Positions 1,805 through 5,345 of a DNA stretch of 64,000 nucleotides are shown here, one piece after another. The stretch spans positions 1,120,001-1,184,000 of the forward strand of contig CALSNU010000001.1 of the NCBI GenBank assembly GCA_943787795.1, written 5' to 3'. This stretch comes from an uncultured bacterium. Its GTDB lineage: Bacteria; Planctomycetota; UBA1135; GCA-002686595. A program made the position numbers and the translations under genes. Position 1 is the first letter of the stretch; every line of letters begins with the position of its first letter. The notes beneath the pieces were generated by a model that saw only the letters and a program-made list of their open reading frames with translations, did not search any database and was not told where the DNA came from.

Positions 1805-1948
1805 CAGTGGAGTGAATCCAAGGGCAAGCAGTGGAGTGAATCCAAGGGCAAGCAGCGGAGTCAATCCAAGGGCCAGCAGCGGAGTGAATCCAAGGGCAAG
1901 CAGCGAGGTGAGTCCATGGGCTGACAGCAGAGTCAAGGCATGGGCCAG
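1805..1948. repeat. 24-bp tandem repeat CAGYGGAGTGAATCCAAGGGCAAG, about 6 copies; last copy overlaps the rhomboid stop codon
   Basis: Units start at 1805, 1829, 1853, 1877, 1901 and 1925. Confidence 0.9.
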
Positions 1949-2856
1949 AGGGCGACGGTCCATGCGAGGGCGATGATCGAGAACGTCGCGGCCGCGAGGC
2001 CCGCCTGGGCGCGCGACCCAAGGCGCTCGGCGAGGTCCAACCTGCTGACGGCGACACCGATCAGCGCTCCGGCCGTGAAGCCGGTGGCGTGGGCGAGGAC
2101 ATCGACCCGCCCGGAGCCATCTCCCGCGCCGAGCCACCCGAAGAGCACCGCCCCGCCGAAGAGCGGCGCGACGCGGCGGACCCAGGGGGCGCGTGCCTTC
2201 CCCCGCCGCGCCCACTCGGAGGTCACCATCACTCCGAGCGTGCCGAAGATCGCCGTCGAGGCGCCCACGGCGGTGTGAGTCGGCGAGGTCAGGTAGGACT
2301 CGGTGAAGTTCCCGAGCGCGCCCGCTGCAAGCGTGCAGAACCATGCCAGCCCCGCACCGAGGGATTGAGCGGCGAGGATGCCGAAGAGGGAGCCGAACAC
2401 GAGGTTACCCACGAGGTGCTGCGCATCCACGTGGAGTGTCAGCGCAGTGACCGCCCTCCAAACCTCTCCGGTGCGTACCTGAGCTGCGCTCATGAGGCCC
2501 TCATCCCACCAGTTCAATCCGAACGCCCCCTTCTGTCCGATGGGGAAGAACAGCACGCAGAGCAGACCGAAGGAGAGCGCGGCCACAACGCCCTTGCTGC
2601 GAATCGGCGGGGGAGGTGGGGAGGGGTGGCCCCACGTGGCGGCCTCGGCCGCGAAGTCGACGAGCTCTGCGCTTGCGCCTGGCGCGTCGTGTGCGAGCAC
2701 GAGGACTCGGGCGCCAGCCCCGTTCACCTGGACCGAGTGCTGGATGCCCCGCGCCTGCAGGGCGAGGGCGCTGTCCCTGACCGCGCGCCGGGACCGGCCG
2801 CGGAGGACCTCCACATGGCCCGGAGGTAGTGGGCCGAAGGAGTCGGCCTGATTCAT
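1933..2856 (-). CDS. Rhomboid intramembrane serine protease with N-terminal soluble domain
   Basis: WR motif, HLVGN, catalytic GASTAIFG, AHATGF; start placed at MNQADS. Confidence 0.9.
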   Translation of the reverse strand: MNQADSFGPLPPGHVEVLRGRSRRAVRDSALALQARGIQHSVQVNGAGARVLVLAHDAPGASAELVDFAAEAATWGHPSPPPPPIRSKGVVAALSFGLLCVLFFPIGQKGAFGLNWWDEGLMSAAQVRTGEVWRAVTALTLHVDAQHLVGNLVFGSLFGILAAQSLGAGLAWFCTLAAGALGNFTESYLTSPTHTAVGASTAIFGTLGVMVTSEWARRGKARAPWVRRVAPLFGGAVLFGWLGAGDGSGRVDVLAHATGFTAGALIGVAVSRLDLAERLGSRAQAGLAAATFSIIALAWTVALWPMP

Positions 2857-2894
2857 GGCTTGGAGGGCATCTTGTCCCGCTCGTTCCTCGACTC

Positions 2895-3263
2895 TCAGCC
2901 CAGGCGCAGCAGGCAGTCGGGGCAGCGCTGGGCGCCTCGGGGAATCTCGGCCATGCACGCGGGGCACTGCGAGGACTCCGCGTCGAGGTCGATCACGTGC
3001 TGAGACGCCTCGAGGGCCACGCCCTCGGGATCGAGGCGCATGAGCTCCTCGTTAGCGTCGCGTTGGATGAGCTCGGCTGCTTGTTGAATGTCAGGCTTCG
3101 CGACCGCGAGCCAGAGGGCCGCGCCTCAGCCGTTGGGGTCGACTCCAGGCGGACAGATCACGCGGGCCTCAAGGCCCGCCTTCTCTAGGCGCACTCGCTG
3201 GTCGTTGACGGCCTTGAACTTGCCCTGGCTCAGGACGGCCATGTGTTCGGGGAGCTCGGTCAT
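2895..3263 (-). CDS. Candidate selenoprotein, 122 aa, TGA at codon 46, C-terminal double-CxxC zinc ribbon
   Basis: Manual translation: MTELPEHMAVLSQGKFKAVNDQRVRLEKAGLEARVICPPGVDPNG-U-GAALWLAVAKPDIQQAAELIQRDANEELMRLDPEGVALEASQHVIDLDAESSQCPACMAEIPRGAQRCPDCLLRLG; fills the gap between yciB and the rhomboid gene. Confidence 0.8.
3094..3112 (-). promoter_or_regulatory. Putative bacterial SECIS element
   Basis: GGCUCGC-GGUC-GCGAAGCC hairpin starting 13 nt after the UGA at 3126-3128. Confidence 0.7.
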
Positions 3264-3284
3264 GATCGTGGAGGGAGTGAGCCC

Positions 3285-3902
3285 TCAGTCTTCGGTCGGA
3301 GATTGGGGGCTGTGCCGGTGGATCAACGGCTGCTGCAGGAGCATGAACAGGAAGGTCAGTCCAAGGATCCCGAACAGCTTGAAGTTCAGCCACACCGATG
3401 TGGTCGTGGATCGCCACACCAGCTCGTTCAAGCCTGCAATCACGAGGAAGAACAATCCCCAGCGCAGAGACAGCGTACGCCAGCCCTTCTCATCGAGCTC
3501 CAAGGTGGCCCCGAGCAGGGGCTTGATCAGCGCCTTACCCAGAGCCCAGCCAATGAGGAGGGTCGAGCCCATGAGCCCGCTGACGATGGTGGGCTTGTAC
3601 TTGATGAAGCGCTCGTCGTTGAAATAGACGGTCAGGCCTCCCATCACGAGCACCACGGCGCCGGTAATGAGTGGCATGGCGTGGATCTTGCGCTCGATGG
3701 CGTAGGAGATGGCCAGAGCGATCGCGGTCACCGCCACGAAGATCCCAGTGGCCCAGATCAACCCCTGGGTGTCGTCCTCGACGATCCGCTTGGCGACGAA
3801 GAAGGTCCCGAAGAAGACCACCAGCGGGCCCATATCGAGGACGAGCTTCAGCTGGGGGGACAGGGTCGGGGCTGCCGGATCTGAGTCAGGGGAGGTCGCC
3901 AA
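3285..3902 (-). CDS. yciB: Inner membrane protein YciB (IspA/IspZ family)
   Basis: DMGPLVVFF, FNDERFIKYKPTI, NELVWR, WLNFKLFG; TTG start is approximate. Confidence 0.92.
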   Translation of the reverse strand: MATSPDSDPAAPTLSPQLKLVLDMGPLVVFFGTFFVAKRIVEDDTQGLIWATGIFVAVTAIALAISYAIERKIHAMPLITGAVVLVMGGLTVYFNDERFIKYKPTIVSGLMGSTLLIGWALGKALIKPLLGATLELDEKGWRTLSLRWGLFFLVIAGLNELVWRSTTTSVWLNFKLFGILGLTFLFMLLQQPLIHRHSPQSPTED

Positions 3903-4350
3903 GAGAAGGTGGCACGAGGGGTTGGGGCGGTTGGACGTGGAAGACGAGGCGCTCGAGCGTCCGGGGTCGAGGGGCCCCAAAGGCTACCCCGATCATGGAC
4001 GCAAGCGAGGGCTCGATCTCCGTGTCTGCTCTCGGATGAAGCTCGGCGCGAGCTCGAAGTCATAGCTCGTGGTCGCGCTGGGCCACGGTCCACGCCGATG
4101 CGCCCCTCCGTCGAAAGGGGGCCAGCACGAGGCCTCGCACCGACGCGGAGGTCCCGTCCCAGGGGGGCAGCAGTGGGAGCTGCCGGAGAGGTTCAGCGTG
4201 AAGCTCACCTGGTGCCAGGTGTCCGGTGACAGGTCACGGATCACCGGGGCTGGTCGCAAGAAGGTGGGGGGCCCTCATTCTTCCGGGAAGCACGAGTCTC
4301 CCAAGGATCGGACACGGGACCCGACGGTCGATCGGGCCCATTCTCGTTCA

Positions 4351-4452: not shown

Positions 4453-4572
4453 GGCTCAGTTCCTGATCCGCTTCAGTCTCCGATCAGGTCTGGTCTCCGG
4501 TCGGACCCCCGCACCATCGAGCTCGGCGCCCATGGGGACCCGTCAGCACCGGGCCTGTTCGCCCCGGGCCCG

Positions 4573-4722
4573 TCAATGCAGAGCCCGTCAACGCAGAGCC
4601 CGTTAACGCAGAGCCCATCAACGCAGAGCCCATCAACATCGGGCCCATCAACGCAGAGCCCATCAACATCGGGCCCATCAACACAGAGCCCATCAACACA
4701 GAGCCCATCAACACAGAGCCCG
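4573..4722. repeat. 15-bp tandem repeat TCAACRCAGAGCCCR, 10 copies, just downstream of lexA
   Basis: Read directly from the sequence. Confidence 0.92.
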
Positions 4723-4736
4723 CCTGAAGCTCCCGC

Positions 4737-5345
4737 TCAGTACTTCCGCACCACGCCGATCACGACCCCGCGAATCTCCACCTCGTCGACGATGATCGGG
4801 CTCATGGTGGAGTTGGCGGGCTGAAGGCGGAACTGATCTCCCTCGCGGTAGAAGCGCTTCAGCGTCGCGTCCCCGTCTGGAAGGACCGCCACCACCGTCT
4901 CTCCGTCACGTGCGGATTGCCGGCGCTCGATGAGGACAATGTCCCCGTCCGCGATGGCGTCCTCGATCATCGACTCCCCCTGGACCTCGAGGGCATAGAC
5001 GTCCTTACCCTCAGGTACGAGGTCCGCGAAGTCGAGCTGCTCGGGCTCCTCAATGGTCTCGATCGGAGCGCCCGCCGCGATCTTGCCAAGCACCGGGAGT
5101 GAGACCCCGCTCCCTGACTCGTCCTCGTCGTCGACGAGTTCAAGGCTCCGGCTCACTCCCTTGGCCCGTCGTCGAATCACGCCCTTGCGCTCCATCTCGG
5201 CCACGTGTCCGAAGATCGTGACCTTGTTGACGCCAAACTGGGCCGCGATCTCCTCAAGGGTCGGGCTGATGCCGTGCTCCTCGACATACGAGCGGAGGAA
5301 CTGGATGATGTCCTGCTGTCGGCGGGTCAGGGGTAGGGTGCTCAT
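4737..5345 (-). CDS. lexA: SOS transcriptional repressor LexA
   Basis: N-terminal wHTH (SPTLEEIA), IAAG cleavage site, catalytic GESM and TLKR. Confidence 0.97.
   Translation of the reverse strand: MSTLPLTRRQQDIIQFLRSYVEEHGISPTLEEIAAQFGVNKVTIFGHVAEMERKGVIRRRAKGVSRSLELVDDEDESGSGVSLPVLGKIAAGAPIETIEEPEQLDFADLVPEGKDVYALEVQGESMIEDAIADGDIVLIERRQSARDGETVVAVLPDGDATLKRFYREGDQFRLQPANSTMSPIIVDEVEIRGVVIGVVRKY

Follow-up and report, generated by a model that had tools for sequence, protein, structure and literature searches.

A predicted selenoprotein gene was found on the reverse strand (3263-2895) of a 64,000-nucleotide stretch, hereafter the window, of contig CALSNU010000001.1 from an uncultured bacterium of the Planctomycetota. 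The gene contains a single in-frame TGA at codon 46, and comparison with related genes indicates that this UGA46 is almost certainly read as selenocysteine (Sec). SelB would bind a GGUC hairpin situated 20 nucleotides 3' of UGA46 and bring the Sec-tRNA with its UCA anticodon, after which the ribosome would continue past the codon to a C-terminal zinc ribbon; without selenium, translation would end after 45 residues. The explanation as a whole, namely one 122-residue selenoprotein of a divergent DG form (NF049953) acting as an adaptor or sensor, is given a probability of roughly 80%. The runs holding half or more of the 64-kb stretch are marine (14 rows), and the named close relatives of the stretch are Planctomycetota in four of six records.

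Re-translation of 3263-2895 agreed with an earlier reading made from the letters of the DNA (the sequence-only reading), which had described one frame filling the gap between yciB and a rhomboid gene. This frame is interrupted only by the TGA (3128-3126; context ICPPGVDPNG-TGA-GAALWLAV) and runs for 76 more codons to the C-terminus CPAC-x10-CPDC-LLRLG. The same reading held that both fragments had escaped the open reading frame (ORF) list; however, at a minimum of 40 amino acids the list contains them as 3126-3263 (45 amino acids) and 2895-3041 (48 amino acids). With a codon model of the genome, the two halves score +15.6 and +22.3 in the frame of the gene, compared with -43.8 to +10.8 in the other frames. 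Both halves use codons as genuine genes of the genome do. The sequence-only reading had pointed to 3126-3128 as the place where a sequencing error would be visible. The codon is unchanged in contigs of two other DNA runs, both marine and neither marked as a possible source of the stretch, which bridge the TGA (3079-4100 and 2764-3294) with no listed difference.

A search was made of 61 related genomes (a count which includes the source genome, G000). Protein matches were obtained in 40 of these. A single in-frame TGA is present in 38 of the 40 best matches, at identities as low as 32%; the TGA occupies the identical site in 29 of the 30 loci examined. An alignment search across the order detected the gene in 207 of 301 genomes. 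After a duplicate, a fragment, a piece of a paralog and three weak matches had been set aside, 74 loci were compared codon by codon, and the site was found to hold TGA in 56, Cys in 14, Trp in two, Thr in one and Leu in one. The TGA forms occur in six or more families of the phylum (f1, f5, f7, f9, f10, f32, f57). Where a stop is present at the site it is always TGA (56/56), with the terminal stop codon being variable. Uninterrupted homologs cover both halves of the gene, and the homolog search proposed in the sequence-only reading returned relatives spanning both halves with TGA or Cys at position 46. Trp at the site is also seen in a database protein (P0006) which is placed elsewhere in the family tree. 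Some loci depart from this general form. In f41, a distant family of the phylum, the gene (L051-L055, L057-L060, L062, L099) takes a long form with two ribbons; its loop is rich in Cys, the site reads TGC or TGT and the hairpin is absent. A second match in genome G026 (L083, G026:C182) resembles the ribbon end of the Sec gene of that genome in its C-terminal part and has a different N-terminal domain, and the gene of G020 (L086, G020:C32) is matched in two separate parts, pointing to a frameshift or an error of assembly.

The source genome (4.7 Mb, 85% complete) encodes the machinery for Sec insertion. It contains selA (E 7e-120), selB (winged-helix match), a tRNA-Sec (69 bits, anticodon UCA) and a selD which carries one TGA of its own, so that selA, selB, selC and selD, named in the sequence-only reading as the genes to look for, are all present. 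TGA is the main stop codon of the genome, ending 2136 of 2651 long ORFs, and a genome-wide reassignment of UGA was rejected on this count. The earlier suggestion was that the gene would imply Sec use in this lineage. That use does not depend on this gene: selA occurs in 59 of the 61 related genomes and at least 13 other read-through candidates from redox families are present in the source genome. Selenoproteins have already been reported from Planctomycetes (PMC4807772).

Downstream of the TGA, a bacterial selenocysteine insertion sequence (SECIS) was predicted as a hairpin with seven pairs, one bulge and a free energy of -10.3 kcal/mol. Published criteria for bacterial SECIS elements include a loop of 3-9 nucleotides, a stem of 4-16 bp, a G in the first two loop positions, a spacing of 16-37 nucleotides and a minimum free energy of at most -7.5 (PMC13188914), and the GGUC hairpin lies within all of these. 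Its codons are nearly invariant. Among the Sec genes that keep the respective residue, codons 52-55 use a single codon in 54/56, 52/52, 56/56 and 53/55 (96-100%), compared with 39-80% at 16 other conserved degenerate positions, and the peptide LAVA is spelled as in the hairpin in 10 of its 194 occurrences in the genome. The exceptions keep the pairing (L033, L068, L065, L041, L093, L094): both stem partners are changed in two genes, a G-U pair is formed in three, and in one further gene two amino acids are changed and the stem pair is restored. None of the 14 Cys-form loci retains the hairpin codons, nor does the Cys form L201, and in the Cys form L143 the stem is disrupted. The GC-GGUC-GC apex is also found in three thioredoxin-like selenoprotein genes of a sister family (L194, L195, L197). 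Taken together, the Sec machinery, conserved TGA, SECIS and Cys homologs give the selenoprotein candidate of the sequence-only reading high confidence.

Other readings of the TGA were considered. Read-through of UGA46 might insert Trp or some other standard amino acid, with the hairpin acting as a read-through stimulator in place of a SECIS. TGG does occur at the site in 18 genomes of the sister family, interleaved with TGA, but a stimulator would be pointless behind TGG, where the hairpin is nevertheless frozen (see below); the site often holds Cys, most long ORFs of the genome end in TGA, and the hairpin conforms to the SECIS model and looks like those of the thioredoxin-like selenoprotein genes, all of which renders this reading very improbable. 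It is even less probable that translation stops at UGA46 and that a separate zinc-ribbon protein of 48-74 residues is encoded downstream. Protein databases do store the Sec forms in such pieces (N-terminal fragments of 45-57 and C-terminal fragments of 69-74 amino acids); however, the break would split a single folded domain between the second and third strands of the model described below, and neither the uninterrupted homologs nor the exclusive use of TGA at the site would be expected of two genes. Least probable of all is a sequencing error or a recent nonsense mutation in a pseudogene, in whose favor nothing speaks beyond the presence of the stop codon itself; with the identical codon in other DNA runs and in 38 of the 40 matching genomes, including distant relatives, both were rejected.

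The sole notable NCBIfam match of the protein is NF049953, 'zinc ribbon-containing (seleno)protein DG' (E 3e-14, 53.3 bits against a cut-off of 130), with residues 6-121 aligning to positions 57-171 of the 172 in the profile. The core domain and the C-terminal zinc ribbon of this family are therefore present and the N-terminal ribbon (profile positions 1-56) is not. Two database Cys proteins score 202-208 bits on the model, and U46 is aligned with their loop Cys. No match above the cut-off was obtained in any of 401 genomes of the phylum. 'Hypothetical protein DG' is listed as a predicted selenoprotein with the motif GUxG (PMC13188914) and originates from the deep-Sep study of Xiao and Zhang (2025), where it was predicted in two Desulfosediminicola species and where its sequence (Table S2) shows a zinc ribbon at the N-terminus and a loop of the form C-x3-U (PMC12013277). 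The planctomycete protein shares with DG the core domain and the C-terminal ribbon, and apparently also the place of Sec in the loop, in what reads, compared by eye, as a G-U-G motif in both. It differs in its length (122 compared with about 190 residues), the absence of the first ribbon, its phylum and the absence of a Cys four residues before Sec; the site motif is GUGA as opposed to GUxG, lying one residue closer to strand 3 in a gapped loop alignment, and identity to members above the cut-off is about 20%. With apparently the same site, the same core, a score below the cut-off and no first ribbon, the gene is, on sequence comparison, a short, divergent variant of NF049953 and not a new family, and the novelty implied by the sequence-only reading is weakened accordingly. 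In a family tree of 157 rows, built from few columns by a quick method, DG falls with the long forms and away from the short Sec forms (Shimodaira-Hasegawa-like approximate likelihood ratio test, 85); this placement is weakly supported, and the tree does not decide between one and two origins of Sec. The stem 'Planctomyc' is absent from the main texts of PMC13188914, PMC12013277 and PMC13326102, of which the figures, as well as BSepDB and Haft and Tolstoy (2025), may list such homologs. The predicted DG family is thereby extended from Desulfosediminicola to a short form in Planctomycetota with close strains in marine samples, and a gene present in more than two thirds of the genomes of its order turns out to be stored in pieces and to score below the cut-off of its only family model.

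The protein was modelled with AlphaFold2 using a 40-row alignment with U replaced by C (mean predicted local distance difference test score 93.4). The model comprises three strands (residues 8-14, 33-36 and 50-55), two helices (16-28, 56-77) and a zinc ribbon spanning roughly 97-121; residue 46 falls in the loop that joins strand 2 to strand 3. The best fold matches were PrgK (4w4m, Z 9.4, root mean square deviation 1.2 over 57 residues) and EscJ (1yj7, Z 9.1). The resemblance is to the first ring-building domain of these proteins, a common small fold, at about 20% identity; unlike them, the planctomycete protein has no lipoprotein signal or membrane segment in its sequence and no secretion gene among the neighbors scanned. 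RPA1041 (2hfv), which we take to represent DUF2007, was also matched (Z 6.5, 3.7 over 65 residues), the Z score being within the range of common arrangements. The atlas neighbors of a natural homolog (P0018) include unnamed clusters as well as DUF2007 clusters (0.87-0.90), and weak Foldseek rows for PII proteins were seen at E values above 0.1. It should be noted that these fold and atlas matches speak to the fold and not to function. DUF2007 is called a PII-type domain; compared with PII-like proteins, which have the full PII fold, the planctomycete protein has only three strands. A search of PDB sequences returned nothing below E 0.005, and Pfam gave no match of the protein to DUF2007 (PF09413) at E values up to 1. 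Of the DUF2007/PII-like domain fused to a zinc ribbon that the sequence-only reading had proposed, the beta-alpha-beta-beta-alpha domain and the C4 ribbon are supported and the DUF2007 assignment is a fair lead that lacks a direct Pfam match.

The sequence-only reading further proposed a redox pair of Cys37 and Sec46. Cys37 (position -9) is present in 19 of the 56 Sec genes, namely all 17 examined from this genus and those of two other genera; in 14 of the 56 a Cys precedes Sec by 3-7 residues, in one it lies at -10, and in 22 the 14 residues ahead of the site contain no Cys. A conserved partner Cys near Sec, as in the CxxU and UxxC motifs of dithiol-type oxidoreductases, was consequently not found, and a conserved Cys37/Sec46 pair was rejected at the level of the family. 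A loop without any Cys is also seen in many of the more distant homologs, and this suggests that Sec probably modulates rather than catalyzes. Trp, Thr, Leu or other residues stand at the site in many homologs, and the four zinc-ribbon Cys are invariant in the 40-row alignment, which argues for a non-catalytic role. Judging from the fold and this pattern of substitution, the protein may be, at odds slightly short of even, a small soluble protein-binding adaptor or sensor in which Sec tunes activity and is not required for catalysis. Sec would sit exposed in the flexible loop of a DUF2007-like domain, followed by the long helix and the C4 ribbon, and the loop selenol would make binding sensitive to oxidation or soft metals.

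Two further functions were weighed against this adaptor or sensor role. Sec46 could be a metal or chalcogen ligand, the protein being a metallochaperone or a Se/S carrier like Se_S_carrier (PF11823) whose loop holds Cu, Zn, Hg or perselenide. Many Cys forms have Cys-rich loops (CC, CxxC, CxxxC), a minority of Sec genes have a nearby upstream Cys as described above, and PF11823 matches residues 25-66 weakly (E 0.053) and reaches E 0.1 or better in 4 of 40 members (best 0.0055). However, the match scores 13.5 bits, far under the Pfam cut-off of 25, the 22 Sec genes devoid of an upstream loop Cys and the Trp, Thr and Leu forms do not fit a ligand site, and no selenium- or sulfur-metabolism gene adjoins the gene among 76 neighbor proteins scanned, all of which leaves this function unlikely. 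A thiol oxidoreductase with a catalytic Cys37-Sec46 selenenylsulfide is less likely again. Bacterial selenoproteins are for the most part regarded as redox proteins (PMC13188914), Cys37 is found in every gene of this genus examined and lies at the base of the Sec loop in the model, but it is confined to about a third of the Sec genes, the fold is not of the thioredoxin type and non-redox residues replace Sec in many homologs. Cys37 is possibly a genus-specific resolving Cys.

A number of observations weigh against the selenoprotein and adaptor interpretation. The hairpin is not unusually stable when compared with shuffled sequences (z of +0.1 to +1.0 in three windows and -1.5 in the longest), and RNAalifold chose another structure for a 29-row alignment. 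Covariation is slight, with one both-sided change, a level reached by 19 of 500 shuffles, because the columns hardly vary. Contigs from two RNA runs cover the gene in part, none of them across the TGA, and such contigs are no proof of transcription. The neighbors of the gene are not conserved beyond one subclade. With respect to the fold, Foldseek gave no match at E 0.001, and DUF2007 is not among the top 25 shown of 53 Pfam families for 40 members.

Further information on the hairpin came from the sister family f10 of the same order, in which the gene was found in 74 of 91 genomes, with one TGA in 54 and stop-free in 20. Every full-length match without a stop (19 in total) was examined, along with 32 of the 54 that have TGA. 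Of the stop-free genes, 18 have TGG (Trp) at the site (L111-L120, L123, L125, L127-L130, L141 and L142; e.g., G045:C59:121616-121954 and G421:C75:31393-31731) and one has TGC. The hairpin codons CTC GCG GTC GCG are unchanged in all 18 TGG genes, which come from 10 genera and share a mean synonymous codon identity of 0.63. On the tree of the TGG genes, no changes were counted at the four hairpin codons compared with a mean of 3.9 at 13 control Leu, Ala and Val codons, a comparison which overstates the case since some branches were probably TGA. Within a weakly supported group of seven genes that are all TGG, the count is 0 compared with 1.25 changes per codon (p about 0.004-0.007); for a group of three genes the corresponding p is 0.03-0.07. 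On a quick tree with site and hairpin masked, the state of the site changes at least eight times and a single TGG clade was rejected (approximately unbiased test, p 0.015). Two genera contain both states. Among the 18 TGG genomes selB is present in 17 and tRNA-Sec in 15, being not found in G461, G452 and G532 (82, 69 and 72% complete). A recoding through a tRNA-Sec that bears CCA as its anticodon was rejected, all 15 having UCA, and selD retains its TGA in the two TGG genomes checked. A general replacement of TGA by TGG in f10 was not found as far as the W-U-G-P-C motif and selD (five genomes) are concerned: the DNA pattern for W-W-G-P-C occurs in 29 of 91 genomes at 32 places, the 30 places examined not being thioredoxin-like, and that for W-U-G-P-C in 77 of 91 genomes, nine of 10 examined being thioredoxin-like.

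It is possible, with the balance tilted somewhat against it, that these TGG genes represent a natural SECIS-driven wobble insertion of Sec at the Trp codon UGG, as the codon patterns would suggest, with dual decoding as Sec or Trp. The UCA tRNA-Sec and SelB would compete with Trp-tRNA at UGG and the SECIS would stay under selection. The full-length protein would always be made, its ratio of Sec to Trp would track the selenium supply, and lineages would switch repeatedly between UGA and UGG. In engineered Escherichia coli, both Trp and Sec products were obtained from a UGG placed directly before a SECIS when the tRNA-Sec was the native one with UCA, at good yield only with overexpressed selABC (Xu et al., 2013; PMC3834832). 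The 18 relatives have the same arrangement of UGG, predicted SECIS and, in the 15 where a tRNA-Sec was detected, UCA tRNA-Sec; the E. coli case is artificial, whereas theirs would be natural. Natural insertion of Sec at sense codons has been described through a changed anticodon of tRNA-Sec, e.g., for UGU in Aeromonas salmonicida (reviewed in PMC10778597). The relatives likewise have a sense codon and a SECIS at a Sec site, but the anticodon matches the codon in A. salmonicida and is UCA here. Among the matches listed, judged by title or the start of the abstract and with the subscription literature mostly outside this scope, there was no natural case of UGG with a SECIS. Alternatively, the TGG states may be young and the hairpin not yet decayed, or the hairpin may have a second role, for example the binding of SelB without insertion or mRNA stabilization. 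Codon bias combined with a conserved LAVA strand may also inflate the signal at the hairpin codons, as five of 16 LAVA peptides in flanking ORFs share the spelling (a count which may include the gene itself). If Sec is indeed inserted at UGG, such selenoproteins would be invisible to searches for in-frame TGA, bacterial selenoproteomes would be undercounted and an ambiguous codon could act as a selenium-dependent switch. With their frozen SECIS, the TGG forms are a natural candidate, open to direct testing, for Sec/Trp dual decoding at a sense codon by an unchanged tRNA.

Coordinates of the predicted selenoprotein gene, its parts and its neighbors within the window.
Feature	Position	Strand	Remarks
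Selenoprotein gene, short variant of NF049953 (DG) type	2895..3263	-	122 codons + stop
In-frame TGA, codon 46, predicted selenocysteine	3126..3128	-	conserved TGA, unchanged in other DNA runs, aligned with NF049953 Cys
Predicted bacterial SECIS hairpin	3094..3112	-	loop GGUC 3105-3102; overlaps codons W51-L52-A53-V54-A55-K56-P57
N-terminal beta-alpha-beta-beta-alpha domain (residues 8-77); strands 2 and 3 flank the Sec46 loop	3033..3242	-	AlphaFold2; DUF2007-like lead
Cys37, end of strand 2, base of Sec loop	3153..3155	-	not conserved family-wide (19/56 Sec genes)
C-terminal C4 zinc ribbon (Cys100, 103, 114, 117)	2901..2975	-	invariant Cys; weak Pfam DZR match
yciB/IspA, upstream neighbor	3285..3980	-	PF04279 E 6e-57; listed ORF, true start uncertain
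Rhomboid protease with soluble N-terminal domain, downstream neighbor	1933..2856	-	PF01694 E 5e-22
lexA, upstream, same strand	4737..5345	-	syntenic in genus

The stop codon of yciB lies 21 nucleotides ahead of the start of the selenoprotein gene, and the order lexA-yciB-gene-rhomboid is kept in the genus. The rhomboid gene adjoins the selenoprotein gene in 12 of the 38 loci inspected, mostly those of one subclade, with varied neighbors elsewhere. The soluble N-terminal domain of the rhomboid (2650-2856, reverse strand) shows a residue pattern like that of the N-terminal domain of the selenoprotein, minus the Sec loop; a profile comparison of the two domains gave a probability of 36% (E 4e-4). 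A functional link between the selenoprotein and the rhomboid is a weak lead. Short tandem repeats were also seen, as repetitive ORF translations, beside the rhomboid gene and lexA (about 1790-1930 and 4480-4710).

Elsewhere in the source genome, 18 TGA read-through candidates were picked by hand (L203-L220). For 14 of them the match to a redox family extends across the TGA; these are selD, nine proteins of thioredoxin-fold or TlpA-like type and one each that is AhpD-like, PrdB/GrdB-like, SelL-related and SelW-like. On these sequence matches the genome looks rich in selenoproteins. Candidate L212 probably represents two genes and L220 looks spurious. For two others, L209 (G000:C1:990334, forward strand) and L214 (G000:C2:428135, reverse strand), no NCBIfam or Pfam family was obtained at the thresholds used; both have good coding scores and a C-U or C-x-U context, and they are possible unrecognized selenoproteins.
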